This document shows, piece after piece, positions 4,319 to 56,940 of a stretch of 64,000 nt of DNA. Every line of letters begins with the position of its first letter. Within the stretch, counting starts at the first letter, position 1. A program made the position numbers and the translations under genes. Origin of the DNA: a virus; IMG/VR virus record IMGVR_UViG_3300028901_000317, positions 10,155 to 74,154 of that record; one strand, given 5' to 3'. Under the pieces are notes generated by a model that had not been told where the DNA came from, did no database searches, and saw only the letters and a program-made list of their open reading frames with translations.

Positions 4319-5530
4319 TCAACCCTCCTTCCTGAGGAGGGAGCCTTCGAGTGGCAACTCTACCGTTTGGCCGTTCCATTCGACCGATGCACGCTCACGC
4401 CACTCAGATACCAGTCGGCGGGCCTCCACGCGATCGGTTCTCAGGAACCGAACGAGTTGCCCTTCGGTTATCAGCTCCTCATCAAGCGCTCGAAGAGCCA
4501 GAACGAGGTAGCGGGTGGGAAAGGAGCTGTCAAAGTCACTGTGCGCGTCGAGCGCGAGCTCCGAGCGAGCGGCGTGCGGCTTGAAGCCACGCTCCAAGAG
4601 GTACTCGTATGAGCCTTCACTGATGAGCTTCAGTTGTTCAAGCCGTAATGCCATGGCCTGCACCGACACGAAGAAAAACTGAGCGACTCGGCAAAGGTCG
4701 GCGACCTGGAAGTCGCCCGAGCTGCGGATAGTCTCAGCAACATGTCGCCGAACGCCGGTGCGAGGCATTAGAAACGCCATACCGAAAGCCTCAACGAAGC
4801 GCTCCGATGCTGGCTTGCGGGCCGGACCGTGCAGGTAGTTCACGCCGGGCTTGTATCGCTCGGTCAAGAAGTGGCCGTACTCGTGCGCGATCGTGGCGCG
4901 GCGCCGCTCGGGCGGGTGCTTTCGATTGACCAGAATACAAGGGCCACTTTCAACGGAGTAGGCGTAGAGGCCCGAAACGGTCGAGGGAAGTGCCCAGTAG
5001 AAGATGCGGACGCCGCCCTCGGCTTCAAGTAGGTCGCGGAGTGCTCTGACGGGTTGATCGCCGAGGCCTAGACGCGAACGTTCTCGAATGGCCGCATCTT
5101 CGGCCCACTCCTCGATGTTGCCGCGAGTTGGAATCGGAATTTCGGGTGGGTAGTTGGTGAGAAGCGGTGCCTTCATCATCCGCTCGAGGCCCCGGTAGTC
5201 AGACGCGAGTTGTTCCAGTTCGCCCAGGGCGGTCTCGACTTCGGCCGCTTCCTCCGGCTGGGTCGAGATGATCGCACGGAGGTGCGGTTGCAGCTCAACT
5301 GCGGGCATGTCCGGCCGGACAAGCTCGTGGAGCGAACGCCCATAAATCTGAGCCAGCTTGACGAGTTCTTCGTTTGACGGGACACGTTGCCCCTTCTCGA
5401 TAGCGATGAACGTCGGACGGCTGAGCCCGAGCTCCTGGGCCACGGCCTCCTGCGTGAGGCCTCGCCGCTTTCTCGCGAGTGCCAGGCGCTTGCCTAGCAA
5501 CTGCGGGTCTAGTTTTTCTGAGTCCTTCAT
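4319..5530 (-). CDS. XRE-family HTH fused to ImmA/IrrE (M78) metallopeptidase domain
   Basis: N-terminal RLALARKRRGLTQEAVAQELGLSRPTFIAIEKG; RRRATIAHEYGH (HExxH); EAFGMAFLMP. Confidence 0.9.
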   Translation of the reverse strand: MKDSEKLDPQLLGKRLALARKRRGLTQEAVAQELGLSRPTFIAIEKGQRVPSNEELVKLAQIYGRSLHELVRPDMPAVELQPHLRAIISTQPEEAAEVETALGELEQLASDYRGLERMMKAPLLTNYPPEIPIPTRGNIEEWAEDAAIRERSRLGLGDQPVRALRDLLEAEGGVRIFYWALPSTVSGLYAYSVESGPCILVNRKHPPERRRATIAHEYGHFLTERYKPGVNYLHGPARKPASERFVEAFGMAFLMPRTGVRRHVAETIRSSGDFQVADLCRVAQFFFVSVQAMALRLEQLKLISEGSYEYLLERGFKPHAARSELALDAHSDFDSSFPTRYLVLALRALDEELITEGQLVRFLRTDRVEARRLVSEWRERASVEWNGQTVELPLEGSLLRKEG

Positions 5531-6873
5531 GACACGATCTCCTCACGCTGTTCGTTCATCCACTTGGACCACGGGACACCACGCTCCGCGGCTACCCGGG
5601 CAACTTGCTCCCATTCACGCCGGTACCTCTGAAGAAGATCCGTCTCCGCCTCCCAGCCCGTGCCATCATGCCGCGGCACTTGGCTGGAGCGGAAGTAGCG
5701 CTCCGCGACAGATGGGAGACCATCTCCTGCTTCACTGAGCAGGGCGACCTGCATCAAGGTGGCCTTGAGGTACGCATCCTCACCGGGTCGAAGTAATGCC
5801 ATCGCTCGTGCATCAAGGATGTCAGCCTTGTAGCTCGCTTCGTCGTCCGCAACGCCCCCAGCTACAAAGGCCTGTCGCCTACCGATGCACGCTGCGCAAA
5901 CCCCGCAGTGCCGCGGCGTGCCTCGCTCTCGGGGCGAGGTGTGAATGCAGCTAAAGCTACTGACGGCCAGGTCTCGCAGATGCGGGGGCCGAAGGACCGA
6001 AACCAACTCGGCCTTGGTACGAAGCGAATGCGGGAGCACGAAGCTCATGGGTCGGTCAAGCACCGCGGCCCCAAGCTCGCTCATTTGCGAGAGGAAGCGA
6101 GGATGGCAGCCCTTCGTGGTCCGGCCACTTACAGACATGCCCTGCATCAAAGGGACGTTGAGCGCCCCTACCCCATTCTCGTATACCTCGATTCGTTGCG
6201 CCCCCAGTGCATAGGCGGCTCCGATACCAAGTGCTGCGAAGATGAAGCCGCGGCACCGCTGAGATTGCTCCTGCTCGTCGAGTGGTGGCGGATTGATCAG
6301 AGCCATGCGGACGAAGAGCGGGAAGACCCTCTTGCCGAAGTGCGAGTTGAGGCCAGCGATATGCCCCTCTACACGTGACCGTAGACGTGCCACATGCACC
6401 ATCGTGACAGACGTGACCCGATCGCTCGTCGCCGCAAGGCGAGTGGCAAGGCCCGCAAGCGAATCCAGGCCACCGCTGTAGAGGCAAACCGTGTCGTGGG
6501 CTTCAAGCAGTGAGGTCTGCCACTGACACACTTGTCCCTGCTCAAACTCGAAGCACCACTGGTCACCGCTTAGCGTCATTAGTGCTGACTGAAGGGCTGC
6601 ACTTTCAGTGGACCAGAAGTCCGGATCTGAAACCCGAGCACAAATGCGAATCTCGCGAGCGGGGCCGTGTACGGAGCTCTGGTAACTCCGGCGTACACGA
6701 CGGTCGATGGAGTATATGCCCGCAGCAATTGCGAGCAGGTCACGCACTCTCGGAGGAGCGTCCGAAGAGAGAGGGCCAAAGAGCTCGTCGGCTCGCAGCC
6801 TGTAGTGCGTCTCTGGGAGTAGAGCGCCACTCACGCTCGAAGGATGCACAACTTCGTAGGTGAGGCCGTTCAT
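5527..6873 (-). CDS. QueC-like PP-loop ATP pyrophosphatase (QatC-like)
   Basis: CLYSGGLDS PP-loop, QRCRGFIF, YENG, TKAE, and the Zn-type cluster SC...HCGVCAACIGRR; N-terminal DLLAIAAGIYSIDR extension as in QatC-like proteins. Confidence 0.8.
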   Translation of the reverse strand: MNGLTYEVVHPSSVSGALLPETHYRLRADELFGPLSSDAPPRVRDLLAIAAGIYSIDRRVRRSYQSSVHGPAREIRICARVSDPDFWSTESAALQSALMTLSGDQWCFEFEQGQVCQWQTSLLEAHDTVCLYSGGLDSLAGLATRLAATSDRVTSVTMVHVARLRSRVEGHIAGLNSHFGKRVFPLFVRMALINPPPLDEQEQSQRCRGFIFAALGIGAAYALGAQRIEVYENGVGALNVPLMQGMSVSGRTTKGCHPRFLSQMSELGAAVLDRPMSFVLPHSLRTKAELVSVLRPPHLRDLAVSSFSCIHTSPRERGTPRHCGVCAACIGRRQAFVAGGVADDEASYKADILDARAMALLRPGEDAYLKATLMQVALLSEAGDGLPSVAERYFRSSQVPRHDGTGWEAETDLLQRYRREWEQVARVAAERGVPWSKWMNEQREEIVS

Positions 6874-7457
6874 GAGCCCGCTCCCCGCCGAGAGAGCAGC
6901 GACTCCCCGAGAAGGCTTCGCTGAAGCCCATCACGTTCGGCTTGGGAACGTGGCGGAGTGCGGGGTGCCCTACTTGGATTGGATGCGATTTGTCGGGCGA
7001 TGTTCTGCAATCCAGGCTCTGCGAGGCGTTCCACTTGTGCTCGGAAAGCGCGAGACTCGGAGAACGATGCGAAGCGAGTCGGCATCGCTTCGTGCTCGAT
7101 CTGGTCGAGGAACTTGCCGCCGATAGCTCGGCAATGGTTGCCCATGGTCGTCTCGGCGTCTTGCCCGCAAGGCTCTTCAGCCAACAGGTGCGCGTACTGG
7201 TGTCCATGGCACCTAGACAAGACGACATCGCGCTCGCTCTCGCCGCGCTGCATGGCACCGAGCAAGTCACCGAGGGGGAACTCCGGCCCGCCCCGCATCT
7301 GGTCATGCCTGAGAATCCGCGACAGCGTTCCCTTCACGCACCTGACCAAACAGTTAGCCGCTTCGTCGGCGCTGGCACCGCTCAGTACTCGGTCGCAGAG
7401 AACACGCCACCGCTTACTCCGCCGGTCTCCAAGATCAAGAGTTTCATTTTCTGCCAT
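6870..7457 (-). CDS. Hypothetical protein, first gene of the QueC-like operon
   Basis: 195-aa ORF with a GAGGA RBS; stop overlaps the QueC-like start (ATGA); no motif recognised. Confidence 0.7.
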   Translation of the reverse strand: MAENETLDLGDRRSKRWRVLCDRVLSGASADEAANCLVRCVKGTLSRILRHDQMRGGPEFPLGDLLGAMQRGESERDVVLSRCHGHQYAHLLAEEPCGQDAETTMGNHCRAIGGKFLDQIEHEAMPTRFASFSESRAFRAQVERLAEPGLQNIARQIASNPSRAPRTPPRSQAERDGLQRSLLGESLLSRRGAGS

Positions 7458-7490
7458 GGCCGCATTTATCCTCGACTGGTCCCAGCGAAA

Positions 7491-7538
7491 GACTTTACAA
7501 AGTCAATTCATTATCGTCGAAATGCGCGAATATGTCAA
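7491..7538 (-). promoter_or_regulatory. Sigma70-type promoter with overlapping inverted-repeat operator
   Basis: Minus strand TTGACA-N17-GATAAT (7538-7510), then the inverted repeat GACTTT-AC-AAAGTC (7491-7504) at the expected start site. Confidence 0.7.
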
Positions 7539-7888
7539 GAAGCTGGGTTCAAGGCCTTTCGATTTAGACCACGTTCAAGATACCGACTTGGGTACCGCTC
7601 GAACGAAATGGGCAACAAAGAAACGCTCCGCCCGAACCAATCTTCGCTTCGATCTGTTCTTCCGAAATCGTCCAGGTTGCAGCCTAAGACGCTACTTCTC
7701 AAGTTTTCCCGTGATCGAGGTGCGGGCTCTGTCTGCTTCGGAAACCGGGGTAATCGCTCACCCCCGTGTGTGCCAGCCCCGGTGGGATGGCGAGCGAAAC
7801 CGCGGCATAACTGGCACCCATGTGAAGACTCCCCTTGGAGGCACTACCCGGCTTGTTGCCGGTGGATGCCGTCCACGGAGAGTCCACT

Positions 7889-33671: not shown

Positions 33672-33898
33672 TGTCACCCCCAAACAGGGGTGACATGCAA
33701 GGCTCGGCCGCTTTTCCTCGCTCTTGCAGTCAGAACGATGCTTTTATTGGACATTGTCACTTTTGGCATTTCAAAAGGGTGACAAAGGTGACATCGTTTT
33801 GAGGCAAGCCCAACCCTAAACCAGAGACGCTCTGCCGTATCCGGGTCCATTCCCCGCTTGTACGAGAGACTCACCCCCTTGAAAGTCGGGGTGAGTCT
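33672..33898. repeat. Cluster of inverted repeats downstream of the serine recombinase (candidate att/binding site)
   Basis: TGTCACCCC-N6-GGGGTGACA (33672-33695); TGTCACTTTTG...CAAAAGGGTGACA (33755-33784) plus another GGTGACA; AGACTCACCCC-N10-GGGGTGAGTCT (33867-33898). Confidence 0.75.
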
Positions 33899-34136
33899 TT
33901 TCGTTTTTGAATTCGTCGCGTTCTGCCGCGTGAAACGCTCGCCTTCGCCGCGCGGCGTCTCCGGGAAAGCGTCCAGAGACGCGATATGTGGCCGCATGAC
34001 CCCCGAAAGTCTCTGGGGCCGATTTCCGCGGAACGGTTTTTGTGCTTTGGGGCTCGCACGCGGCGGACCATGGGGCGTTCGGGCGATAGAGACCCGCATG
34101 CACCACCGCTGGCGGCTGCCCAAACCGACTCGCCTT

Positions 34137-35876
34137 TCAGATGTGCAGCAGCTTGGCCTGGCGCGACCAATCGAGGTGGTACGCCGCCGCGATCAAGTCG
34201 TCCATGCCGATGCCCGGCGGCAGCGTGCCCGACAACGCACGCTTCAGGATCGCTGGCGACAAGCGCGTCAGGAGCAGCACCCGATTCACGCGGCTCTCGG
34301 TCAGGCCGACCCGCGCCGCGAGTTGTCGGATGGTGCCGCCCGTGCGTTGCAGTTCTTCGCGGTATGCGAATGCGCGTCCGATCGCGGTTCGGACATGCTC
34401 GGCAGCGCTGGGCTCGCAAGTCGCGACCAGTCCGTGCCCATCTGGGCTGAGCAGCATCCGCTTGCCGTCCAAACGCTTGATCTGGAGCCGAAGCGTCAAC
34501 GCCACGCCGCGCTGCGTGGCTTCGACCTCAGGCGTGAACGGGCACGTCTGGCATGGTGAGGTTTCGCGAGCGTGGTGCTTTCGCGGGGCAGTGGCGGCCA
34601 ACGCTTCGCGGCACGCCTCAATCTGGTCTCTCGTGATCTCGACACGCACGCTCTCGGGTGCAAGCACAACACGATCCACCACGGCTCGCACCCAATGGTC
34701 GCATGCCTCGGGCGGTTGCGCGACCAGGTCGATCTTGTGGGCCGCGCGAAGATGATCACACACCACCGACCGCACCAGTTCGTCCAGCCGCGTCGCGTTG
34801 ATCGTCTTAATGGGGCAAGTCGCGTAGCCGAGCTTGATTGCCTTTTGGCTGACGTAGTAGCGGACGAGTCGGCGTTCCTTGGTCGGCCTGCCATCCCGCC
34901 GCACGATGCGCTGCACTGAGGCAGGGCTCATCGCGTAGTCCTCGCTGGTTCGCAGCTTGCCCTTGAGTAGATGAGTGTGGGTCCAGCGGTGCTGGGTTTC
35001 GCGGTTCGCCGTGGCCATCACGCTCTGCACCCGGTCCCACAGCGATCGTTCGACGATCGGCTCGTGGATGCCCTCAAAGACGTCCGTCTGCGACGTGCCG
35101 TCGACCATCCGCGTGTGCGCGATCTTCCCGATGTAGATCGGGTTGGTGAGGACGCGATAAAGATACTTGGTGTCGAGCGGCCTGCCGCCGCGTGTGTTGC
35201 CGCCAACGCTGTCCCAACGCTTGGTGCGATGCCCGGCGGAATTGAGCACGGTCACGGTCTTCACGAGCGATCCGGTGGCGGCGTAGCCGGTGAACATCTG
35301 TTTCACCAGCTTGGCTTCAGAGTCGACGATGCGGATACGTCTGTCAGTGCCGTCGGGCGCGAGGCGGTAGCCCAGCGGCGGCTGGCCGCACACCCAGACG
35401 CCCTTGCGTTTTGTGGCGGCGATCTTGTCGCGGATGCGTTCACCCGCAACCTCACGCTCGAACTGCGCGAATGACAGCAGCATGTTGAGCGTAAGGCGGC
35501 CCATCGACGTCGTGGTGTTGAACTGCTGGGTAACCGAGACAAACGAAACGCGGTGCTCATCAAAGACCTGCATGAGCCGCGCGAAGTCGGCCAGTGAGCG
35601 TGAGAGGCGGTCCACCTTGTAGACCAGCACCACATCGATCCGGCCAGCACCGATGTCGGCGAGCAATCGCTGCAATCCGGGCCGCTCCATCGACCCGCCC
35701 GAATAGCCGCCGTCGTCGTAGGACGCGTTCACCGCGAGCCAGCCCTGATGCTTCTGGCTCTTAATGTAGTCGAGGCCCGCTTCGCGCTGGGCGTCGAGGG
35801 AGTTAAACGCCTGCTCTAAGCCCTCTTCGCTGGACTTGCGCGTGTAGACCGCGCAGCGGATGGCGCGCGTGGTCAT
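34137..35876 (-). CDS. Large serine recombinase (resolvase + recombinase domain)
   Basis: CAVYTRKS catalytic Ser, YDDGGYSG, RPGLQRLL, YKVDRLSRS, AQFERE...ERIRDK. Confidence 0.95.
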   Translation of the reverse strand: MTTRAIRCAVYTRKSSEEGLEQAFNSLDAQREAGLDYIKSQKHQGWLAVNASYDDGGYSGGSMERPGLQRLLADIGAGRIDVVLVYKVDRLSRSLADFARLMQVFDEHRVSFVSVTQQFNTTTSMGRLTLNMLLSFAQFEREVAGERIRDKIAATKRKGVWVCGQPPLGYRLAPDGTDRRIRIVDSEAKLVKQMFTGYAATGSLVKTVTVLNSAGHRTKRWDSVGGNTRGGRPLDTKYLYRVLTNPIYIGKIAHTRMVDGTSQTDVFEGIHEPIVERSLWDRVQSVMATANRETQHRWTHTHLLKGKLRTSEDYAMSPASVQRIVRRDGRPTKERRLVRYYVSQKAIKLGYATCPIKTINATRLDELVRSVVCDHLRAAHKIDLVAQPPEACDHWVRAVVDRVVLAPESVRVEITRDQIEACREALAATAPRKHHARETSPCQTCPFTPEVEATQRGVALTLRLQIKRLDGKRMLLSPDGHGLVATCEPSAAEHVRTAIGRAFAYREELQRTGGTIRQLAARVGLTESRVNRVLLLTRLSPAILKRALSGTLPPGIGMDDLIAAAYHLDWSRQAKLLHI

Positions 35877-36448
35877 CGTTTGCCTCCTTTCGAGTTGAGG
35901 GCGGTGCTGCTCGCGGCCACCCCAAAGAAACGGGGACCCGACCAGTGGGTCCCCGTGATGATGCGGGCAATCTCGCTCAGGCTGCGGTACTCATGCTCGC
36001 GATACCGGTATCGCTTGCCGCCGTCCAGCACTGTGACCTCGTGGCTGACTCCGCCCCAGAAGCGGACCAGTCGCGACGAGGGCGGCAGGGCGGCGACTCG
36101 CTGGCCCAATCGTTTCACACGCGATGGTGCTGGGGCTCGCTTCGGGTCAGCGTCATCGGACTCGGTGGTGGCGGTTGGCTGCGCAGCCGCTCGCTCGTCC
36201 GCATCGCGATCCCGCCGCGCTTGCCCCACTGCTCGCATCGCCGACTTCAGAAGCCGCGTGGTTTCAGCATCGAGGCCGCCGTGCGTTCGCTCTTGCAGCC
36301 GCCACGCGAGTTCGCGGATCAGGAGTCGCTTCTGGACGGGCGGCTTCGCCTTGCCGATCTGCTCAGCCCAAAGCACACGGAGCCGCGTCAGCGGCATCCG
36401 TGGCAACTGATCCAGATCGATGTCGACCTGTGATCGTGTCATGCTCAT
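35873..36448 (-). CDS. DUF2924-family protein
   Basis: LRVLW...LAWRLQERTHGGL; RLVRFWGGVSHEV...YRSLSEIARIITGTHWSGPRFFG. Confidence 0.88.
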   Translation of the reverse strand: MSMTRSQVDIDLDQLPRMPLTRLRVLWAEQIGKAKPPVQKRLLIRELAWRLQERTHGGLDAETTRLLKSAMRAVGQARRDRDADERAAAQPTATTESDDADPKRAPAPSRVKRLGQRVAALPPSSRLVRFWGGVSHEVTVLDGGKRYRYREHEYRSLSEIARIITGTHWSGPRFFGVAASSTALNSKGGKR

Positions 36449-37161
36449 GCTTTCGCCCCGGACTTGCTGGCGGGCTTGCCATTGGTGGGCTTCACGCTGC
36501 CAGGCTTTGGCTCAGGCTTCGCTGGCGTCTTCACCTCACCCTTGGGGTTGGCACCACCAACTGGGCGGGCGACGAGCGACTTCGCGGGCTTCATGATTCC
36601 CGCCGCGAGTGCGAAGCGGCCCTTGGCGATGCGTGCGAAGCGCGATGCATCGCCCCTCGCGTTGATCTCACGCACCATCGCGGCATAAAGCGTCGCGGAA
36701 GGCGTCTTGCCACCCGGGCTCTGCCAGAGACCGTTTGATTGCATGCGATCAATCAGGTCGTTCGCTCCGATGCCCGTCGTGGCCTCGCTCTTGGGGAGAT
36801 CAGCCAGCACCAATGCAGCCGCGTCCAACGCGCTGAGTTTTGCCCGACCTGTCCGTGGCACATTTGCACTCACCTGCTTCGCGTTGCGACCTTCGCCCGC
36901 TTTCGCGGGAGCCGTGCGGTCCGGTTTCACCAATGGCTTGGTGGCGGGCTTTGCCGCGCGGGCCGCGTCTTTTCCGACCAAGGGATTCTCCTTGCCCTTG
37001 TTCTTCGCTTTGGGCGTGGCGGCGTTGCCCGCGACGCTTGGCTGTGCCGCGACCTTGGCATCGATGGCCACGCGTCCAGCCCGGCGCTTGGGTGCGGACA
37101 CGGGCGAACTGTTGGCATTCAGGGCGGTTTTGGCGGGCGTGCTGGCCTTTGCGTTCTTCAT
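36445..37161 (-). CDS. Lys/Ala-rich protein with winged-HTH (HARE-HTH-like) domain
   Basis: LSALDAAALVL...GLWQSPGGKTPSATLYAAMVREI...SRF; start set at MKNAK after a GGAG RBS. Confidence 0.75.
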   Translation of the reverse strand: MKNAKASTPAKTALNANSSPVSAPKRRAGRVAIDAKVAAQPSVAGNAATPKAKNKGKENPLVGKDAARAAKPATKPLVKPDRTAPAKAGEGRNAKQVSANVPRTGRAKLSALDAAALVLADLPKSEATTGIGANDLIDRMQSNGLWQSPGGKTPSATLYAAMVREINARGDASRFARIAKGRFALAAGIMKPAKSLVARPVGGANPKGEVKTPAKPEPKPGSVKPTNGKPASKSGAKA

Positions 37162-37396
37162 GGCGAATCTCCAGTTGCCGCCGTGGCCCGAGATCCGCCC
37201 ACCGTGGGCGGCACGTCGAGCAACGACGGCCGCACCATGTGTGGCTGGACATAGCGTAAAGGCAAGGCATGCAATCGCGGATTCAGCTGCGCCACGTGGG
37301 CACCTGCCCACATCGCCCAGAAGCGCTCCCCTTCAAGGACAGCCAAAACCCACGTCGCTCTTCGCGCGGGCGAATCGAGCGACACACGCAGGCTGA

Positions 37397-37528
37397 TCAA
37401 CTGACAAGACCGCTACACAGGGCTTCCGCCTGCTCCAATACCGTATCGGTCGCGGCTTCCTGCTTGTCAGGCGGGTAGCCGTACTTCCGGAGTACTCGCT
37501 TCACCGTTGCCCTCAAGCTCGCTCGAAA
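37397..37528 (-). pseudogene. 3' remnant of a type I restriction subunit gene (hsdR C-terminus, DUF3387-like)
   Basis: [36 protein letters not shown] matches the typical HsdR tail; similarity ends abruptly upstream. Confidence 0.78.
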
Positions 37529-37683
37529 GGTCGCGGTTGAAGTGCATCCACCTGTCGGTGCGAGCCGGGCGATTGACCGTCGCAACTGGTCCTTTCGTTT
37601 CGATACACTAACTCACGCTCAGCGATCTTCACGTTGTTGCTGCTCTTGATAATCGCAAACGCCCCGCGAGAAGGCTCACCCTT

Positions 37684-40068
37684 ATGGCTCGCAGTGTCAC
37701 CTCGACTGACGTGGTATTCGCTCACTCGGCGCCCGAGGGCTCCGGCTTGGCGTGGGAACCGCTCATCGATCATCTTCAGCGGGTCGCAACCGGCCGAGAT
37801 GACTTTCTCGGAGCCGCAGGATTCGCTGCAAAGTTTGATTCACGTGACTGGGGCAACCTCGCGGCGATGTGGCACGATATAGGTAAATACGCGCCACAGT
37901 TCCAAAGCTATCTCCGCAACACCGCGGCCGGAGGACCGCGCGAACGAGTGGACCACTCGACCGCCGGAGCTCTGCTCGCCTGGAACGCCCGAGGCATCCA
38001 TCCGCTCGCGGCCGCGGTCGCGTTCGCAGTCGCCGGCCATCACGCTGGTTTACCAGACTTGGGCAACCTTGCCGACGATGATCAGTCCGGGACCTTGCTT
38101 GCCCGCCTACGCCGGCTGCGACCAGAAACCACTGACGCGATCAAGATGGCACCCGCCGACTTGCTCGGGCTGCCGATCCCAACGCCTCCCGCGTGGATGC
38201 GCACGACCGCGGATCAGACACAACAATCTCTCCGCGACTCGCTCTTCATTCGAATGCTCTTTTCCTGCCTCGTCGACGCCGATCGACTCGCCACCGCCGC
38301 CTACGCCAATCAATGTGCACCACAGTTCGTCCCGTCTCCGATCTCCATCGCGGATCTCGCCAACGCTCTCGATCAGGCCATTACGACACTTTCGCATCGC
38401 CGCCCCGGCGGCCCGACGCCGGTTGACGCCGTCCGCGCCACTCTTCTTGCGGACTGCCGCGACGCCGCCGCGTACCCTCCCGGGCTTTTCTCTCTCGTCG
38501 CCCCGACCGGTGCCGGCAAAACCCTGAGTTCAATGGCCTTCGCGCTCCGGCACGCCCAAACCCACGGCCTCGAACGCATCATCTACGCGCTCCCGTTCAC
38601 CAGCGTCACCGAGCAAAACGCCGCAGTCTTCCGCAACGCGTTCGCATCGCTCGGTCGCGACGACATCGTTATCGAGCACCACTCCGCCTTCGAGTCACGG
38701 GCGTCTGACTCCGCTCAAGAGTCTCGCTCTGCCGATGCCCGCGAGCGCCAGCGCCTCGCCGCCACGGAGAATTGGGATGCGCCCGTGATCGTCACCACCA
38801 ATGTGCAACTGCTCGAATCGCTCTTTGCCGCGGCCGCCACTCCCTGTCGAAAGCTCCATCGGATCGCCCGCAGTGTCGTCATCCTCGACGAGGCACAATC
38901 GCTCCCCGTCGATCTTCTCAAGCCCACACTTGCCGCCCTCCAGGAACTCGCGGCCCATTACTCCACCTCGGTTGTGCTCTGCAGCGCGACCATGCCCGCC
39001 GTGTTCAAGCGTCCCGGCTTCGACATTGGTCTTCCCCCTGGGCTCGTCCGCCCGATCGTCAAAGAGGAGCGTGCGATGAGCGTCGCCCTCCGCCGAGCTC
39101 GCGTTTCACACCTCGCGACCCTCTCTGACGCCGCACTCGTTGATCGCCTCGCCACCCATGATCGGGTGCTGGCGATTGTCAACACTCGCAAACACGCCGC
39201 ACAGGTCTTCAGGCTGCTCCAAGATCGCTACCCCGACGCCCTGCACCTCAGCGCCTCCATGTGCCCCGCGCACCGGTCCGATCGCGTCGCAGAAATCAAG
39301 CGCCGCCTCGCAGATCCGGCCTCGCCGTGCCGCGTCGTCAGCACACAGGTGGTCGAGGCGGGCGTCGATATCGACTTTCCGATCGTGTATCGGGCCATGG
39401 CCGGACTCGATTCCATCGTCCAATCCGCGGGACGATGCAATCGCGAAGGAAAGCTTCCCATCGGCGACGTGTTCACCTTCGACCCCGACCCGATCGAATA
39501 CTCGAAGCGTTCGATCCCGCCGAGCATCCGGCAAGCCATTCAGGCCGCCAATGAAGTGCTCTGCCGCGACGACGCGGAGACAACTGCAGCAGACGCGCCG
39601 CCATCCGATCCGCTCGACCTCGCCACCATCGAGCACTACTTCCGCCAGCTCTACTGGACCAAGGGCGGCCCGGAACCCAAGTGGGACGGCTGGCCGGGGT
39701 CCGACGGCCGGCGTAGCGGCATCACCGAAATGCTCGGCCAGCTCAAGCTCCGATCCGCCGCCGACGCCTACTCCATCATCGACGACGGCGCGACCACCTC
39801 AATCGTGGTCCCCTACACCGCCGAGGGCACAGAACTGTGTCAAACATTACTGGAATCACACAGTTCTGTGGGATTCGTGCCCAAGGCGCTTGTACGCGCT
39901 TCGCAGCGATATACTGTTTCGATCCGACCTTATGTTCTCGAACGCCTCCTGCAGCGAAACGCGTGCATCCAACTTGAAGGGGGACCATGGGTGCTGGTGG
40001 GCAAACCCGGGATGTACGACCTCGACATCGGACTCACCGACTCCGACGACGGTTTATTCATGGCTTGA
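37684..40068 (+). CDS. cas3: Cas3 HD nuclease-helicase
   Basis: HDIGK, GHHAGL, LVDAD, APTGAGKT, DEAQ, QVVEAGVDIDF, QSAGRCNR. Confidence 0.97.
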   Translation: MARSVTSTDVVFAHSAPEGSGLAWEPLIDHLQRVATGRDDFLGAAGFAAKFDSRDWGNLAAMWHDIGKYAPQFQSYLRNTAAGGPRERVDHSTAGALLAWNARGIHPLAAAVAFAVAGHHAGLPDLGNLADDDQSGTLLARLRRLRPETTDAIKMAPADLLGLPIPTPPAWMRTTADQTQQSLRDSLFIRMLFSCLVDADRLATAAYANQCAPQFVPSPISIADLANALDQAITTLSHRRPGGPTPVDAVRATLLADCRDAAAYPPGLFSLVAPTGAGKTLSSMAFALRHAQTHGLERIIYALPFTSVTEQNAAVFRNAFASLGRDDIVIEHHSAFESRASDSAQESRSADARERQRLAATENWDAPVIVTTNVQLLESLFAAAATPCRKLHRIARSVVILDEAQSLPVDLLKPTLAALQELAAHYSTSVVLCSATMPAVFKRPGFDIGLPPGLVRPIVKEERAMSVALRRARVSHLATLSDAALVDRLATHDRVLAIVNTRKHAAQVFRLLQDRYPDALHLSASMCPAHRSDRVAEIKRRLADPASPCRVVSTQVVEAGVDIDFPIVYRAMAGLDSIVQSAGRCNREGKLPIGDVFTFDPDPIEYSKRSIPPSIRQAIQAANEVLCRDDAETTAADAPPSDPLDLATIEHYFRQLYWTKGGPEPKWDGWPGSDGRRSGITEMLGQLKLRSAADAYSIIDDGATTSIVVPYTAEGTELCQTLLESHSSVGFVPKALVRASQRYTVSIRPYVLERLLQRNACIQLEGGPWVLVGKPGMYDLDIGLTDSDDGLFMA

Positions 40069-40320
40069 CGACAAACTCCGATTCGCCGTCGGACCTGCCA
40101 TTCTGCACGGATTGCCCGCCGAGCGATTTCCCGCCGGGCGGGCATGGTTGTGCGTTTCACACAGATCAGGTTTCAATCCGCACGGCGCTCGGGCATTCCG
40201 CTCGCCGTGACGCAAGAACTTTGGGCCGTCTTTGCGCGAGCCGTTGACGGCGAGAAGGCCACAGATTATCGTCATTCCTGATATGTGTCAACTGAACGGC
40301 ACACAGGCAGGAGTAGGGAC

Positions 40321-40548
40321 ATGCATAACTCCCGAGTCATTCAGATTCTGACTGATCTCATCGCCACTCTTCCGCCACTCGATCAACTTCCTTATACGCC
40401 GGATTTTGACCACGCCCACGCAATTCTTGAACAACGGCTCGCGCACCCGTATCCCAAGGCTGATGCGTGGCGAGCCATGCTCTACGTTCGCAAGTCGGGA
40501 CGCAGCCGCGCGCGCTTGCGCAAACCCTTTCGGAGAACCCACCCATGA
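40321..40548 (+). CDS. Small hypothetical protein (75 aa) translationally coupled to cas5
   Basis: AGGAG RBS before ATG 40321; stop overlaps the cas5 start (ATGA); LDQLPYTPDFD...WRAMLYVRKSG. Confidence 0.6.
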   Translation: MHNSRVIQILTDLIATLPPLDQLPYTPDFDHAHAILEQRLAHPYPKADAWRAMLYVRKSGRSRARLRKPFRRTHP

Positions 40549-41312
40549 GTTTCGGTATCCGTCTCCGCGTCCACGGCCCGCTCGCGTGCTTCACACGACC
40601 GGAAATGAAGGCCGAGCGCGTCTCCTACGACGTCATTACTCCATCCGCGGCCAAGGGCATCATCGAGGCCATCTACTGGAAGCCTCAAATCCGCTGGGTC
40701 GTCGATCGCATCCACGTCCTGCGCCCCATCCGCTTCACCAGCCTCCGCCGCAATGAGGTCGGCTCTAAGGTCACCGTCAAGGGTGCGACGGGCGCACTCA
40801 GCGCCATGGAGTCCGGCTCCGGCTCGCTCGGCATTTTCATCGAAGAGGATCGCCAGCAACGCGCCGGCACCATCCTCCGAGACGTCGAGTACGTCATCGA
40901 TGCCCACTTCGACATTCTCGACCACACCGACTCCGCCGGCTCGCCCCTCTCCACCGACCAAGCCGCCGCCAAGCACCTCGACCAGTTCAACCGTCGCCTT
41001 GCCGCCGGCCAGTGCTTTCACCAACCCTCGCTCGGCTGTCGCGAGTTCGTGTGCGCCTTTGAACCCGTCGACTCGGCCCTTCCCCTCCGCTCGCTGACGG
41101 CGCCCGATGAGTCTTTCTACGGCTCGGACGCCGCCACGCGGGACCTGGGCTTCATGCTTCACACCATCGACTATCGCCCCGACCCGGATGGTGAGATCAT
41201 CGAAGGCTCGCGTGGCAGGCGGGTCACCGCCGTCCCGCACTTCTTCCGAGCCCTCATGACCCGCGGGGTGATCAACGTTCCTCCACCGAACCACCCGGAG
41301 GTGCGCTCATGA
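40545..41312 (+). CDS. cas5: Type I-C Cas5 (Cas5d)
   Basis: GPLACFTRPEMKAERVSYDVITPSAAKGIIEAIYWKP; PSLGCREF; start at MSFGI. Confidence 0.96.
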   Translation: MSFGIRLRVHGPLACFTRPEMKAERVSYDVITPSAAKGIIEAIYWKPQIRWVVDRIHVLRPIRFTSLRRNEVGSKVTVKGATGALSAMESGSGSLGIFIEEDRQQRAGTILRDVEYVIDAHFDILDHTDSAGSPLSTDQAAAKHLDQFNRRLAAGQCFHQPSLGCREFVCAFEPVDSALPLRSLTAPDESFYGSDAATRDLGFMLHTIDYRPDPDGEIIEGSRGRRVTAVPHFFRALMTRGVINVPPPNHPEVRS

Positions 41313-43135
41313 TCCTGCCCGCCCTTGTGTCTCTCTACGACCGCCGCGCCTCCGAAGGGGACGAAAGCCTCGCGCCCGCCGGCTACAGCCGGCAGAACAT
41401 CAGCTTCGCGGTTGTTCTGAACAAGAACGGCACGCTCCACACCTTTGAACCCCGATTCGTTGAGACGCAGCGCGAGGTCACGAAGAAAGTCAAAGGCAAA
41501 CCCGTGACTGAGCTCAAGTCCGAGCAGCGTCACGAAAAACTTCTCGTTCTCGGCGCAAGCAAGCCCTCCGGCAGCGGGCTCAACCCCTGCTTCCTCTGGG
41601 ATAACGCCGCCTACATGCTCGGCTTCAAACCCGACGATCCCAAGCCCGCACGCACCCGAGAATCCTTCAAGGCCTTCCGCGATCGCCATCTCGCCCTCGC
41701 TTCGCAGATCAAGGACGATGGCTTCAAGGCCGTTTGCAAGTTTCTCGAATCCTGGGATCCCAAAGACGCCAAGAACCACGACCTCGCCGAACTTACCGGC
41801 GCGTTCGGCGTCTTTCGCCTAAAGGCCGAGCAGCTTCTCGTCCACGACTCTCCGGCCGTCCGCGAATGGTGGGATGCCAATCGCCCGCGCGATGACGAAG
41901 ACGCCGACGCCCCCAAAGTGCCTTCGCTCACCACCGGCGCCCCAGCGCTCATCGCTCGCCTCCACCAGCCCATGATCAAGCCGGTCTTCGGCGCACAATC
42001 CTCCGGCGCGGCGATCGTCTCCTTCAACCAGCCCGCGTTCGAATCCTTCGCCAAATCACAGGGCGAAAACGCCCCCGTCGCCGCCCAGGACGCCTTCAAG
42101 TACTGCACCGCGCTCAACCTCCTCGTCGGCGATGACCGCCATCGCACCCGCATCGGCGCGGACACCTACGTCTATTGGGCCGACGAAGGCCGGGGCGGGC
42201 CCGAGGCCGTCGGCCTCATGGGCATCTCCCTCAACTCCGCCGCCGTCACGCCCCAACTTCAGACCATGTGGGACAAGTTCCGCGCCGGCCTCCCCATCAA
42301 GGAACTCGACACCTCCTCCACACCGTTCTACATCCTCGGCCTTGCGCCCAACATGTCGCGCCTCAGCGTCCGCCTCTGGCTCGTCTCCACCGTCTCCGAA
42401 ATCGCATCCCGCTTCCGAGCCCACGCCGACGCCTGCCGCATCGAGCCAGTGCCCGACGACTCGGACACGCCCACCGTCCGCCAACTCGTCGCCGAGACCT
42501 GTCCGCCCAAAGGCGGCTTCGCCGATACCGATCGCCTCACACCCAATCTCACATCAGAACTCATCCGCGCCATCATGCTCGGCACGCCTTACCCGTGCCG
42601 CCTCTTCTCCGCCATGCTCGATCGCGTCCGCATCGAAGGCGTCGCCGACGCCTCAACCCGCAACGACTACCGCGCGGCCCAGTTCCGCCGCTGCGCCATG
42701 CTCCGTGCTTTCCTCATCCGCAACGCCAAGATGGAGGTTCCCGTGGCCCTCGACCCCAACCGTTCCGACACCCCGTATCTGCTCGGCCGCCTCTTCGCCA
42801 TCCTCGAACACACCCAGAGAAACGCCGCGGGAATCAACCTCAACCGCACCATCAAGGATTCCTCGTTCGGTGCCGCCCTCGCGACGCCCGCCGCGATCTT
42901 CCCACGTCTCATCAAACTCTCCAACCACCACCTCAACAAGATCGAGTTCGCCGGCCAACGCACCAAGCGCGAAAAAGAACTCGGCGAAGTCCTCGGTGCC
43001 ATGACCGACTTCCCCCGCACGCTCGGCCTCGAAGACCAAGGCCTCTTCGCCATCGGCTACTACCACCAGCGACAGTTCTACTTCACCGCCAAGCCCGAGA
43101 ACAGCGCCGACGCCGCGACCGCATCCGCCAACTAA
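41309..43135 (+). CDS. cas8c: Type I-C Cas8c (Csd1)
   Basis: [59 protein letters not shown]. Confidence 0.95.
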
Positions 43136-43184
43136 CCGACCGCTCCCACCTCGTTCCACCATCCACCTTCCGAGGAGTCCACCA

Positions 43185-44120
43185 ATGCCCAAGACCGCCA
43201 CCTCCGCCATCCAGCATCGTTACGACATCGTCTACTTCTTCGACGTGACCGACGGCAACCCCAACGGCGACCCCGACGCCGGCAACCTCCCGCGCGTCGA
43301 CCCCGAGACCCAGCACGGCCTCGTCACCGATGTCTGCCTGAAACGCAAGATTCGCAACTACGTCGCCATGAAGCACAACGGCGAGCCTCCCTTCGAAATC
43401 TACGTCAAGGAAAAAGCGGTCCTGAATGAACAACATGCACGCGCCTATACCGCGAAGAAGATCAAGCCCGGTGACGCTGCCGCCACCAAGGACGCCGACA
43501 AAGCCAGGTCCCTCACCGCCTGGATGTGCCAGAACTTCTTCGACATCCGCGCCTTCGGCGCAGTCATGAGCACCGAGGTCAACTGTGGCCAGGTCCGCGG
43601 ACCCATCCAGGCTGCCATCGCTCGCAGCGTCCATCCAATTTTCACCCAAGAGCACGCCGTCACCCGCTGCGCCGTCACTACCACCAAGGAATCCGAAAAT
43701 CAATCCGGCGGCAACCGCACCATGGGGCGCAAGTTCACGCTCCCCTACGCCCTCTACCGCACCAGCATCTTCATCAACCCGCTCCTCGCCGACCCCGACC
43801 GCCACGGCACAGGGTTCAACAACGACGACCTCGACCTCGTCAAAGAAGCACTCTCCGGCATGTTCGATGTTGATCGCTCCGCGTCGCGCGGCGTCATGTC
43901 CCCTGTGCGCTGCTTCGCGTTCCGCCACGACAACCCTCTGGGCAACGCCCGCGCCGCGGACCTTTTCTCGCGCGTGACCTGTCAACCTGTCACCGGCGTC
44001 GCAATGACGCCTGAATCCGCCGCCCAGGGCAACCGCCCGCCGCGCTCGGCCGCTGACTTTGCCATCGCGCTCAACGATGCCAAGCTTCCCGCCGGTGTCA
44101 CTGTCGAACAGTGGTTGTGA
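43185..44120 (+). CDS. cas7: Type I-C Cas7 (Csd2)
   Basis: [48 protein letters not shown]. Confidence 0.97.
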
Positions 44121-44189
44121 CGCCTCGACGCTTTCGATTCGAGCGGCCCGGCAGACATCGCCGGGCTGCTCGGCTATCCGGAGAGTGCC

Positions 44190-44921
44190 GTGACCGATCT
44201 CATCCCCATCTCCGCCCTTCAGCACTTCGTCTTCTGCCCACGACAGTGCGCCCTCATCCACATTGAGGGCGCGTGGGCCGAGAATCGACTCACCGTCGAA
44301 GGCTCGCTCATGCACGCCCGCGCCCACGCCGACCACCTCGGCCCACGCGGCGGCGGCCGCTCCACCTCTCGTCCCCGCGCCTCCACCGACTCCGACGACG
44401 CCCCGCCGGCCATCATCCGCACCGTCCGCGCCCTTGCCCTTGTCAGCGAATCGCTCGGCATCATCGGCAAGGCCGACGTCGTCGAGTTCCATGAAACTCC
44501 CATCGATCACTCGCCCGCCGCCCCACAAACTCATCGTCACGTCCGAGGCACGCCGTACCCCATCGAATACAAACGCGGCCGTCCCAAACGCCACGACGCG
44601 GACTTGGTCCAACTCTGCGCCCAGGCCCTCTGCCTCGAGGAAATGCTCGCCCTGCCGCCCGGCACGATCGCCCACGGGGCCATCTTCTACGCCCGCACCA
44701 AGCACCGGCTTGTTGTTCCGATCGACGCGGCGCTCCGCGACCGCACCCGCGCCGTCATCCATGCCTGCCGCGCGATGCTCAACGCCGGCGTGCTTCCCCG
44801 CATCTCCCGCCAACCCAAGTGCAAACGCTGCTCGCTCGTCAACATCTGTCTGCCCGAGGCCACCGGGCCTTCGGTCTCGGCCTCACAGTTTGTCAATCGC
44901 CACACCACGTCGCCCTCCTGA
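44190..44921 (+). CDS. cas4: Cas4
   Basis: ISALQHFVFCPRQCAL, GKADVVE, PIEYKRG, QLCAQALCLEEM, CKRCSLVNIC. Confidence 0.95.
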   Translation: MTDLIPISALQHFVFCPRQCALIHIEGAWAENRLTVEGSLMHARAHADHLGPRGGGRSTSRPRASTDSDDAPPAIIRTVRALALVSESLGIIGKADVVEFHETPIDHSPAAPQTHRHVRGTPYPIEYKRGRPKRHDADLVQLCAQALCLEEMLALPPGTIAHGAIFYARTKHRLVVPIDAALRDRTRAVIHACRAMLNAGVLPRISRQPKCKRCSLVNICLPEATGPSVSASQFVNRHTTSPS

Positions 44922-44943
44922 GCCGCAACTGGTCACTGCGCCA

Positions 44944-45978
44944 ATGAAGCACCACCTCAACACCCTCTTCGTCTTCACCCAAGACGCCTACCTCGCCAAA
45001 GAAGGCGAAACCATCGCCGTCCGCGTCGACGGCGACGTGAAACTCCGCCTCCCCGTCCACAACCTGGGCGGCGTCGTCTGCTTCGGACTTGTGGGCATGA
45101 GTCCGCGCTGCATGGCCATGTGCGCCGAGCACGGCGTCACTGTCACATTCTGCTCCGAGCACGGCGGATTCCTCGCTCGCTGCTCCGGCTTCACCCCGGG
45201 CAACGTCCTGCTCCGCCGTACCCAGTATCGCTGGGCCGATGATTCCCTCCGCACGACTGAAGTCTGCCGCGGCATTGTCCTAGGCAAACTTGTCAACGCC
45301 CGGACCACGCTCCTCCGTGCCGCCCGCGAAGCTCCGGTCGCGTCGCCCGCTGCCGATCACCTTTCAGCGGCCGCCGCACGCTTTACCGACTCCATCGCCG
45401 CGGCTCGCGTCGCCTCGAACACCGACTCCCTCCGCGGGATCGAGGGCGACGCCGCCAACACCTACTTCTCCGTCTTCCAAGACATGATCCGCTCCGCCTC
45501 GCCTGCCTTTGTGTTTGAAGGCCGCACGCGCCGCCCCCCTTTGGACCGCGTCAACTGCCTGCTCTCATTTCTATACGCCATGCTCGCGCATGACGCTCGT
45601 GCCGCCTGCGAATCCTGCGGCCTCGACGCCGCCGTCGGCTTTCTCCACGTCGATCGTCCCGGCCGCCCCAGCCTCGCCCTCGACCTGATGGAAGAGTTCC
45701 GCTCCCCACTCGTTGATCGCCTGGTCCTCAGCCTCATCAACCTCGGACAGGTGAAGCCGCAGGGCTTTACCGCTACCGCATCGGGTGCCGTCGAGCTGAA
45801 CGAACCCACGCGCAAGGAAGTCGTCGCTGCTTATCAACGCCGCAAGCAAGAAACGATCACGCACGCCTTCCTCAACGAGAAAACCACCGTCGGCTTGCTC
45901 ATCCACCTCCAAGCCCGCCTCCTCGCCCGATTCATTCGCGGCGATCTCGATGCCTATCCACCTTGTCTATGGAAGTAG
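44944..45978 (+). CDS. cas1: Type I-C Cas1
   Basis: MKHHLNTLFV, GNVLLRRTQY, LRGIEGDAA, NCLLSFLY, GRPSLALDLMEEFR; true start at 44944, not 44263. Confidence 0.97.
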   Translation: MKHHLNTLFVFTQDAYLAKEGETIAVRVDGDVKLRLPVHNLGGVVCFGLVGMSPRCMAMCAEHGVTVTFCSEHGGFLARCSGFTPGNVLLRRTQYRWADDSLRTTEVCRGIVLGKLVNARTTLLRAAREAPVASPAADHLSAAAARFTDSIAAARVASNTDSLRGIEGDAANTYFSVFQDMIRSASPAFVFEGRTRRPPLDRVNCLLSFLYAMLAHDARAACESCGLDAAVGFLHVDRPGRPSLALDLMEEFRSPLVDRLVLSLINLGQVKPQGFTATASGAVELNEPTRKEVVAAYQRRKQETITHAFLNEKTTVGLLIHLQARLLARFIRGDLDAYPPCLWK

Positions 45979-46023
45979 CAACTTCGAGGCCGCCGAGCCA
46001 CGATCCTTGAATTGAACGCACTC

Positions 46024-46314
46024 ATGTACGTCCTAGTCACCTATGATGTTTCCACGCAGACCGCTGAGGGCAAGCGCCGTCTCTCCCGCGTCGCCAAAGT
46101 CTGCCTCAACAAGGGCCAGCGTGTTCAGAACTCGGTATTTGAATGCCTCGTCGATCCTGCACAGTTCGCTGCGCTCAAGGCTGAGTTGCTTCAGTTGATC
46201 GATCCTCAGACAGACAGTGTCCGTTTCTACATGCTCGGCGCCAACTACAAACATCGAATCGAGCACTACGGGGCCAAACCATCGCTTGACATCGACGGCC
46301 CGCTCTTCGCGTGA
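46024..46314 (+). CDS. cas2: Cas2
   Basis: MYVLVTYDV...RVAKVC...QRVQNSVFEC...DSVRFY. Confidence 0.96.
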   Translation: MYVLVTYDVSTQTAEGKRRLSRVAKVCLNKGQRVQNSVFECLVDPAQFAALKAELLQLIDPQTDSVRFYMLGANYKHRIEHYGAKPSLDIDGPLFA

Positions 46315-46538: not shown

Positions 46539-54898
<8,360 letters not shown>

Positions 54899-55365
54899 CC
54901 TAGGGTTTGTTACCGTAGGCCCCAGTTCTTGGCGGTCGATTCGCTCGTTCGAAATACTATCACGCCCAGTGTAAATTACCATAACCCGCTTGCACGAGTT
55001 CCTTTGTGGTCACTGGAACGACATCACCATTCTCGAGTCACCTGTTCTGTTCTTCCACCGGCGAACGTCTCGCGCACCGAGCGGCGTGCGGCGGTTCTAG
55101 CGGCGTTTAAGCTCATGGATACCATGCGTTTGGCCACCGTCGGGTGCCAGGCTTCGCTCGCCGACGCTCAATGATCCCAATCGTGGGGAGCGAGGTTGCG
55201 CACGCGGCGGGGTACCTATCGTCGGCGGCCTTGCCCTGGATGTCGTCGGAAACCCAAGCACACCGGGCTCGCAATCGCAGCGCAACCTCCCCTCATGTGA
55301 AGACTCCGGTCGGAGGCACCTCTCGGCTCGTTGCCGGTGGGTGCAATCCGATGGAGTCCTTCACC

Positions 55366-56940
55366 ATGGCCAAGGCCAAGCGTTCGCAGCGTTCGCAAGC
55401 GTCAGCACCCACCACCAGCGGTTCGAGTTCCCTCCGCATCGAGACCATCCCGGTCTCGCAGATCAACCCCGCGCCGTACAACCCCCGCGTCGCGCTCACA
55501 CCGGGCGATCCGGAATACCAGAAGCTCGCCCGCTCGCTGGACGAGTTCGGTCTGGTGGAGCCCCTGGTGTGGAACCGTCGCACCGGGGCACTGGTCGGCG
55601 GGCACCAGCGGTTCGCGGTGCTGGTGGCGCAGGGCAAGAGCGAGATCCCGGTCAGCGTGGTCGACCTGCCCGTCGAGCGCGAGAAGGCCCTCAACCTCGC
55701 GCTCAACAAGATCACCGGCCGCTGGGATGAGGACAAGCTCGCCCAGTTGCTCCACGACCTCTCGACCGTGCCCGACTTTGATCTTGCAATCACGGGATTC
55801 GAGCTGCCCGAGGCCAGGTCGCTGATCGCCGAGCATCTGTTGGCGATGGGCGGCGATGGTGATGACGGCTTTGACGTGGAAGCGGCGCTCGCCGCAGCGG
55901 CTCCGACTGTCACCAAACCCGGTGACCTCATTCTGCTGGGCCGCGATCCGCGGACCCAGCACCGCCTGCTCTGCGGCGACAGCACGAATCCCGAGGACGT
56001 GCGCCGGCTCATGAACGGTGAACGCGCGGCTCTCTTCGCCACCGATCCCCCGTACTTGGTCGGGTACGACGGCACCAACCACGTCACCAGCAAGGCCAAC
56101 CGCCGCAAGATGGCGGTGAGGAAGTTGTCCAATCCCGCGGGCAAGACCGAGGCCCACAAGGACTGGTCGGGCACGTACGGCATTACCTGGGACGATGCCG
56201 ATGCGAACCCCGATCTGTATGACAAGTTCTGCACTGTGGCGATCGCGGAAGCGATCCACCCCAACGCGGCGTGGTATTGCTGGTATGCCAGCAGTCGGCA
56301 CAGCATGCTCGAAGCGGTGTGGAAGAAGCACGGCGTCTTGGCGCACTGCCAGATCATCTGGGCCAAGAACCGCCCCATCCTCACACGCTCGTGGTACACG
56401 TGGCAGCATGAACCGTGCCTGATGAGTTGGCTGCAGGGCAAGAAGCCCCACCGAGCGGACAAAACAGTGCTGTCGACGTTGTGGCAAGTGCCGACGCTGG
56501 CGACGGGGCCGGATCGGCCTGATCATCCGACTCCCAAGCCCCTGGAACTCTTCGAGACCCCGATCCGCCAGCATACGCGCGGCGGGGACATCTGCTACGA
56601 GCCCTTCGCGGGGTCGGGGACCCAGATCATGGCCGCGCAGCGGCTGGGTCGGCGCTGCTACGCGATGGAGATCAGCCCGCGGTACATCGACGTGATCGTG
56701 CGGCGGTTCATCGCCGCGGCCGGGGCTGATGCCGTCAGCCCGGAGATTGCCAAGAAGTACCGGCCGGTCCCGGACGATTCGGTCGCCGCAGCCTCCCGGC
56801 GCGGGAGGTCTCCGAAGGTCTCCCCAACGCCCGGGGCAGCAGTATCCGAAGCGCAACTGACCGACCAACCACCCAAGCCCGGGGCGGCCAAGTCGACTTG
56901 CGCAAGCCTGCCGACGCCGCCGATGGCCAAGGCCGGGTGA
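55366..56940 (+). CDS. ParB-like domain + DNA methyltransferase, copy B
   Basis: Same motifs as copy A and near-identical over most of its length; start at MAKAK after GGAG. Confidence 0.88.
   Translation: MAKAKRSQRSQASAPTTSGSSSLRIETIPVSQINPAPYNPRVALTPGDPEYQKLARSLDEFGLVEPLVWNRRTGALVGGHQRFAVLVAQGKSEIPVSVVDLPVEREKALNLALNKITGRWDEDKLAQLLHDLSTVPDFDLAITGFELPEARSLIAEHLLAMGGDGDDGFDVEAALAAAAPTVTKPGDLILLGRDPRTQHRLLCGDSTNPEDVRRLMNGERAALFATDPPYLVGYDGTNHVTSKANRRKMAVRKLSNPAGKTEAHKDWSGTYGITWDDADANPDLYDKFCTVAIAEAIHPNAAWYCWYASSRHSMLEAVWKKHGVLAHCQIIWAKNRPILTRSWYTWQHEPCLMSWLQGKKPHRADKTVLSTLWQVPTLATGPDRPDHPTPKPLELFETPIRQHTRGGDICYEPFAGSGTQIMAAQRLGRRCYAMEISPRYIDVIVRRFIAAAGADAVSPEIAKKYRPVPDDSVAAASRRGRSPKVSPTPGAAVSEAQLTDQPPKPGAAKSTCASLPTPPMAKAG

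Follow-up and report, generated by a model that had tools for sequence, protein, structure and literature searches.

Remnant of a type I restriction gene beside a type I-C CRISPR-Cas locus in the probable cargo of a Phycisphaerae island

With a probability of about 70%, the dead 3´ end of an hsdR gene that we describe here lies in the cargo of a recombinase-bearing Phycisphaerae island, from which a type I restriction-modification (R-M) system was lost and in which a type I-C CRISPR-Cas system is now located. The DNA analysed (the window, 64,000 nucleotides) comprises positions 10155-74154 of a source contig of 74,570 nucleotides that is filed as virus record. It contains two related units, copies A and B, each with an interval, the slot, bounded on one side by genes for a HARE-HTH protein, a DUF2924 protein and a large serine recombinase (the trio) and on the other side by a block that starts with a DNA methylase gene. 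The slot is most likely the cargo region of an island from an uncultured Phycisphaerae bacterium. All feature coordinates are given in Table 1.

The hsdR stump is located on the minus strand between the trio operon (34137-37161, minus) and cas3 (from 37684, plus). The original prediction had described it as the last 40 or so codons of an HsdR-like gene, and about 44 codons (37400-37531, 132 nucleotides) are indeed left. A mechanically called ORF of 62 amino acids with a TTG start (37397-37585) contains them and matches the Pfam family PF11867 (T1RH-like_C, formerly DUF3387) with an E-value of 3e-14 and 53.6 bits (gathering cut-off 26.8); the expected HsdR/DUF3387 profile match was thus obtained. 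The match is confined to the extreme C-terminus, spanning the last 39 profile positions (289-327 of 329). The nearest proteins are full-length HsdR subunits, namely P0002 (1022 amino acids, 83% amino acid identity) and P0003 (1023 amino acids, 79%, from a Phycisphaerae MAG), and window positions 37412-37531 are 87% identical on the nucleotide level to the 3´ ends of both genes. Given this Pfam E-value and 87% DNA identity to real hsdR genes, the match cannot be due to chance. The likeness to full-length hsdR ends abruptly at about position 37532, and from this breakpoint to the start codon of cas3 there are 152 nucleotides. Directly downstream of the stop codon a terminator-like hairpin was found, which is probably the former hsdR terminator; the fold of this RNA has a z-score of -1.5, which is weak on its own. 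Stump and hairpin are retained 83 nucleotides inside the variable region.

Searches of slot B by tblastn with full-length HsdR and with HsdS and a C-terminal HsdM piece of a related operon did not reveal any other R-M remnant, and the HSDR_N nuclease domain as well as the SF2 helicase/translocase core needed for a functional subunit are absent from it. The stump is the remnant of a member of the HsdR family with PF11867 tail and not a functional subunit, and copy B has no R-M function left, since only the last ~44 hsdR codons persist. The frame is open and databases contain many short proteins whose sole match is to PF11867, so that a functional small protein derived from the HsdR tail, for instance a regulator or an anti-restriction decoy, might be considered. 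However, these short database entries are truncated calls from an internal hsdR methionine or tails fused to unrelated N-termini, the hsdR likeness begins abruptly within the ORF, no gene was called here on the identical JGI contig and a promoter scan was negative, making such a protein extremely improbable.

Slot B covers positions 37315-55269 (about 18 kb) and contains the stump, a complete type I-C operon and an array with 128 spacers, and nothing else. Operon and array occupy the rest of the interval, in agreement with the proposal that the type I-C locus fills the gap up to the copy-B methylase. The assignment to type I-C is based on the presence of all seven genes (cas3, cas5c, cas8c, cas7, cas4, cas1 and cas2) together with the repeat array. 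The spacers did not match the own contig or any of the related loci compared. Within the array (52458-52688), one spacer-plus-repeat unit is present in two copies that are 99% identical and 132 nucleotides apart, representing a duplicated spacer. Between the array and the right conserved block lies a unique stretch of 371 nucleotides, in which neither an open frame nor an R-M remnant was detected. According to the boundary alignment, the right edge of the slot is located at 55270 in B and at 7795 in A, about 100 nucleotides before the methylase start; an HTH gene, terL and an Mrr-like gene follow downstream of the copy-B methylase. In GC content and composition the cas locus is not distinct from its flanks, and the best Cas3 relative in the collections searched is 48% identical and thus too distant for mapping the borders of the incoming DNA by comparison. 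A further type I-C locus was observed in Phycisphaeraceae ACE_PLA1 (L033 17115-20362, G001:C1:1160495-1168861), immediately outside a methylase-terL-trio element, at the recombinase end; its Cas2 is 77% and its Cas3 47% identical, and there is space for an array between cas2 and the recombinase.

Table 1. Location of features in copies A and B and in related loci. Positions without locus name refer to the window.
Feature	Position	Strand	Details
Conserved tail 3´ of recombinase (B)	33860..34136	minus	~200 nt, ends in hairpin; alignment and blastn
Large serine recombinase (B)	34137..35876	minus	579 aa; Pfam Resolvase and Recombinase domains
DUF2924 protein (B)	35873..36448	minus	Pfam PF11149, E 8e-36
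HARE-HTH protein (B)	36445..37161	minus	238 aa from MKNAK; Pfam PF05066
Conserved non-coding HARE-HTH leader (B)	37162..37314	minus	left edge of slot
Palindrome GTGGGC-N4-GCCCAC (B)	37296-37311
Terminator-like hairpin	37335..37396	minus	directly 3´ of stump stop; stem ~13 bp, then GUGGGUUUUGG
hsdR 3´ stump	37397..37540	minus	last ~44 codons and stop codon (37397-37399)
Complete type I-C cas operon	37684..46314	plus	Pfam; precomputed Pfam on identical DNA in L166
cas3	37684-40068	plus	followed by a 75-aa ORF
cas5c	40545-41312	plus
cas8c (Csd1)	41309-43135	plus
cas7	43185-44120	plus
cas4	44190-44921	plus
cas1	44944-45978	plus
cas2	46024-46314	plus
CRISPR array	46539..54898	plus	129 repeats (31 nt as matched), 128 spacers; last repeat degenerate
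Unique 371-nt stretch	54899..55269		between array and right conserved block
Right edge of slot B	55270..56940	plus	~100-nt conserved leader, then ParB_N-N6/N4 DNA methylase, ATG at about 55373
hsdS (A)	127-1383	minus
hsdM (A)	1380-3395	minus
PIN (A)	3785-4315	minus
RmrA-like HTH-M78 (A)	4319-5530	minus	PADLOC E 1e-34; RosmerTA-like pair with PIN
QatC-like (A)	5527-6873	minus	PADLOC E 4e-48
195-aa ORF (A)	6870-7457	minus
PtuA-like ATPase (A)	left of window	minus	408 aa; PADLOC E 2e-86
PtuB-like HNH (A)	left of window	minus	237 aa; PADLOC E 9e-59
HsdR (A)	left of window	minus	1056 aa; Pfam
ORF without family (A)	L001 4079-5242	minus	387 aa; no Pfam/PADLOC match
HARE-HTH (A)	left of window	minus	273 aa; Pfam
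DUF2924 (A)	left of window	minus	191 aa; Pfam
Large serine recombinase (A)	left of window	minus	578 aa; Pfam
RAMA/GIY-YIG protein (A)	left of window	minus	236 aa; Pfam
Leader (A)	L001 3816-3969
Leader	L170 3372-3492
Leader	L172 3170-3320
Leader	L174 1751-1901
Leader	L176 3874-4024
Leader	L177 1813-1964
323-aa ORF	L172 2134-3105		no Pfam/PADLOC match
255-aa ORF	L170 393-1160		no Pfam/PADLOC match
tRNA-Ser	L174 5058-5147		anticodon CGA
tRNA-Ser	L176 7426-7515		anticodon CGA
tRNA-Ser	L170 7504-7591		anticodon GGA

The comparison of the two copies defined the slot. Self-blastn showed 79% nucleotide identity between the trio of copy A (contig 852-3926) and the one of copy B (window 34183-37268), the recombinases being 78% identical on the amino acid level, and 79-83% between the methylase-HTH-terL-Mrr-like blocks (7819-14029 versus 55294-61354). 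Both flanks are common to A and B in the same relative order and orientation, the content between them is unrelated and both homology edges are sharp. Slot A has a size of ~14 kb and carries a type I R-M system with Septu embedded in it, a RosmerTA-like pair and a QatC-like pair; its right-hand part corresponds to window positions 1..7794 (minus) and the remainder is located left of the window (L001). Downstream of hsdS, the order in A is PtuA, PtuB, hsdR, the 387-aa ORF, HARE-HTH, DUF2924, recombinase and RAMA/GIY-YIG. The R-M operon of A is thus followed by the trio, as had been anticipated, with the 387-aa ORF intervening. The KYGYPPD tail that had been suspected at the end of A's hsdR is absent: HsdR of A does not match PF11867, cannot be aligned to the stump and is only 24% identical to P0003, in the helicase core. 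Thus, copy B has lost a system of a different type I family and not an A-like one. The view that both units have a variable defence slot is supported, since the interval between trio and methylase is variable and rich in defence genes in A and B, and the same applies to the DNA beside the trio in relatives.

Type I R-M loci are carriers of embedded defence genes in arrangements of the prr/rlo type. Copy A is alike in that the Septu pair PtuA/PtuB sits inside its R-M operon, between hsdS and hsdR (L001 8345-10284). In the nearest full-length relative of the stump (L002 1818-9935, from a Phycisphaerae MAG), seven genes are located between hsdS and hsdR, and this large defence insert in the type I operon includes DUF2326, AbiJ/Abi_C, DUF3644, a reverse transcriptase and SIR2. 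Copy B differs from this arrangement, as only the hsdR tail is left.

The left edge of the slot is formed by the leader of the HARE-HTH gene. When A and B are compared, the sequence changes sharply at window position 37268 from unalignable to about 90% identical; the likeness of copy B to the other relatives extends to 37314. The leader (~105-150 nucleotides upstream of the HARE-HTH start) is 80-90% identical on the nucleotide level in seven elements, making it more conserved than the HARE proteins of the same elements, which are only 50-81% identical on the amino acid level. Its frame-breaking indels show that it is non-coding. A search with nhmmer found only the close relatives of the trio and not the more distant Phycisphaerae loci, Rfam had no match for the leader or anywhere in the window, and the fold of the leader RNA is marginally more stable than that of shuffled sequence (z = -1.96). 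In five of the seven elements the leader starts with a perfect palindrome, GTGGGC-N4-GCCCAC, which occurs only once in the 64-kb window and is missing at the far edge of the slot. Leader and palindrome are likeliest to be an operator or the 5´ UTR of the HARE-HTH operon. Located exactly at the point where the elements cease to be homologous, they might also serve the neighbouring large serine recombinase as a dedicated site for the capture or exchange of defence cassettes, similar to attI. Since no second palindrome was found, the capture-site reading is unsupported and highly unlikely; if true, the palindrome would go beyond a HARE-HTH operator and be a serine-recombinase analogue of the integron attI. 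The leader with the palindrome at the slot edge is the sole feature that could hide something new. We also considered an integron-like platform with repeated sites bounding the cassettes, and rejected it given the single palindrome in 64 kb.

Pattern scans of genome and viral contigs did not find relatives of the HARE-HTH and DUF2924 genes; relatives were obtained from the protein database. The HARE-HTH relatives (56-81% identity) come from metagenomes and Planctomycetota MAGs, and a 238-aa protein identical to the one of copy B has been called on other contigs. DUF2924 has been described in the literature as a partial match to the RAMA DNA-binding domain of mobile elements. The seven elements (A, B and five relatives) have seven neighbours beside the leader. 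In the five relatives, the neighbours on the slot side are an OLD/AriA-like ATPase-TOPRIM protein (677 amino acids) with a 255-aa ORF (L170/L171), a GmrSD-like protein (PDC-M55C, E 5e-64) with a divergent SNF2 helicase of HmaA/DrmD-like type (L176), a divergent HmaA/DrmD-like SNF2 helicase (L177/L178), a 323-aa ORF without family (L172/L173) and an Ig-domain/EF-hand protein (L174/L175). The six neighbours on the same strand were compared and have no mutual similarity; the divergent SNF2 helicase of L177 matches none of the proteins of the window, and falls into the same PADLOC families as the second, outer SNF2 gene of L176. Recognised defence genes make up five of the seven neighbours, and the other two have no defence match in Pfam and PADLOC. 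The defence systems identified are type I R-M, Septu, RmrA-like, QatC-like, type I-C CRISPR-Cas, OLD/AriA-like, GmrSD-like and SNF2 HmaA/DrmD-like. Three unrelated ORFs without Pfam or PADLOC match are also located beside the leader (387, 323 and 255 amino acids; Table 1) and are candidates for unknown defence genes; a protein atlas gave no usable lead for the 387-aa ORF of A.

A tRNA-Ser gene is present 190-1000 nucleotides beyond the recombinase in three of the relatives (L170, L174 and L176), after a conserved ~200-nt tail with hairpin, and ordinary chromosomal genes follow past it. Classical tRNA islands have the same layout, in which the integrase is closest to the tRNA and the cargo extends away from it. 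tRNA scans of copy B revealed no tRNA gene after the recombinase tail, where IS remnants are found instead. A search around the trio of the three relatives revealed neither att-like repeats, tRNA-derived or other, nor island ends; cargo within an island can therefore not be distinguished from variable chromosomal DNA next to the module. It could be argued that trio and leader together constitute one small autonomous element and the methylase-terminase block a second one, with a chromosomal defence island between them. In L174, the trio is flanked by ordinary-looking genes (an Ig-domain surface protein and metabolic genes) without recognisable cargo, and thus may be a self-contained unit; furthermore, the trio directly follows terL in the distant relatives L024 and L033, and an element could end where the homology stops at the palindrome. 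However, the tRNA-Ser on the recombinase side of three relatives makes the recombinase tRNA-proximal, as in islands that carry their cargo on the opposite side, A and B have both flanks in common with different contents between them, and most neighbours are recognised defence genes. We therefore regard defence genes merely lying beside two such elements as improbable and favour island cargo.

Relatives of the methylase were found in many Phycisphaerales MAGs with 55-65% identity, often in several copies per genome. The usual order in these distant relatives is methylase, terL and then, after 0.5-5.5 kb, HARE-HTH, DUF2924 and recombinase on one strand (L024, L033, L028, L006 and L014), with a minimal secretion cluster upstream or downstream of the block (L025, L034 and L069). 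Judged against most Phycisphaerales relatives (L024, L025, L033 and L034), the methylase-HTH-terL block is inverted relative to the trio and the TPR/secretion cluster in both copies (7819-14029 and 55294-61354). On this contig, the defence genes are located between the inverted methylase-terL block and the trio. Upstream of the methylase, some relatives carry genes of housekeeping type (MetH, copper ATPase, symporter) and others genes of defence type, namely BrxL (L007), TIR-STAND (L033) and KAP NTPase (L024). In view of the one-strand block with little in between in distant relatives, the two-sided slot is specific to this lineage; the association of the trio with variable neighbours is broader than that.

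How could the stump have arisen? If the content had been exchanged cleanly, by homologous recombination in the two conserved flanks, no remnant would be left. Since stump and terminator are retained within the variable region, the breakpoint was illegitimate at least on the left side and no clean flank-to-flank cassette swap took place. The observations comprise the identity of the stump, the sharpness of its breakpoint, the conservation of the flanks and seven elements with different neighbours, and from these the following course may be envisaged. An hsdR gene of the PF11867-tail family would once have been the last gene, with its own terminator, adjoining the HARE-HTH/DUF2924/recombinase module of a Phycisphaerae island, in which the DNA beyond the conserved leader would be cargo consisting mostly of anti-phage genes. 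This earlier R-M cargo of copy B would have been lost via a rearrangement that broke hsdR at an illegitimate site. On the right, the breakpoint may be located within or close to the conserved methylase block, or in the unique 371 nucleotides after the array; a homologous crossover in the methylase block, combining one-sided homology with an illegitimate join, could have generated the right join. An intact type I-C locus would then have come to occupy the interval, the R-M system having been there first and its loss being linked to the arrival of CRISPR-Cas.

The stump demonstrates that a PF11867-type R-M system was lost from slot B, and this part of the original prediction that CRISPR-Cas displaced an R-M system stands; nothing shows that arrival and loss were one event. 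One-step displacement is the most economical reading and is not demonstrated. It is possible, though unlikely, that two unrelated events occurred, with the R-M system decaying by deletion and the type I-C locus being inserted separately before or after, so that nothing was displaced. Similar orphan hsdR tails in other metagenomic genomes have no CRISPR-Cas beside them: P0096 (L185 8001-8321), from a defence island with DUF4011 helicase, HSDR_N_2, TIR and AIPR, comprises approximately the same 45 residues, and P0057 (L187 8001-8294) is found alone among unrelated genes. In addition, there is no second R-M remnant that would mark a matching right-hand breakpoint. Against two events stands the short distance between breakpoint and cas3 in a slot that is otherwise empty, for which a single replacement is the simpler explanation. 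Stumps of hsdR are thus a by-product of turnover that recurs.

Among the relatives examined, none carries an intact hsdR of PF11867 type here, and the ancestral state is therefore read from the stump alone. An alternative allele in which hsdR is intact was also not seen in public sequencing runs. Four bioreactor-metagenome runs, all from one study, cover the stretch completely or almost completely, and runs of other studies contain only short parts of it. Contigs from one of the four match its sequence, and a further two of these runs may represent the source sample. A low-depth contig of 213 nucleotides from another study ends 4 nucleotides from the breakpoint and was not counted as evidence.

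Defence hotspots in mobile elements reportedly include those of P2/P4 prophages and hotspot 5 of SXT ICEs. They have also been described in pipolins (PMC11551731), and core defence hotspots are known from Pseudomonas aeruginosa (PMC10250203). The slot resembles all of these in having conserved flanks around a differing interval dominated by anti-phage systems, and R-M, Septu, CRISPR-Cas, OLD-family and GmrSD-like systems are content types common to both. It differs in its host, which belongs to the Planctomycetota (class Phycisphaerae), in the HARE-HTH/DUF2924/large-serine-recombinase module with an unusually conserved non-coding leader, and in the other flank, a ParB-methylase/terminase block without capsid genes; in addition, the island is a putative one. 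Serine recombinases mobilise defence cassettes in tandem beside SCCmec in staphylococci (PMC11470126), and PLE islands use a large serine recombinase (PMC6002521). Both resemble the situation described here in the combination of large serine recombinases with anti-phage islands and in two related units lying near each other on one chromosome. However, there is no sequence relationship to Ccr or the PLE integrase beyond shared domains, the accessory genes here are HARE-HTH and DUF2924, and a tRNA-Ser is found beside the recombinase-side end in close relatives. In the literature searched, coverage of which was incomplete, we found no description of the HARE-HTH/DUF2924/serine-recombinase trio as an island module.

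The change seen in copy B is ordinary turnover of immune genes at a hotspot and not a new mechanism. Hotspots in mobile elements with leftover fragments are already well established, so that the finding extends this principle and does not change it. For a phylum that has received little study, the stump provides direct sequence evidence of immune-gene turnover at a single fixed site. It also indicates a family of Planctomycetota islands that share the HARE-HTH/DUF2924/serine-recombinase module and its conserved leader, and searches with this module could lead to defence genes, unknown ones among them.
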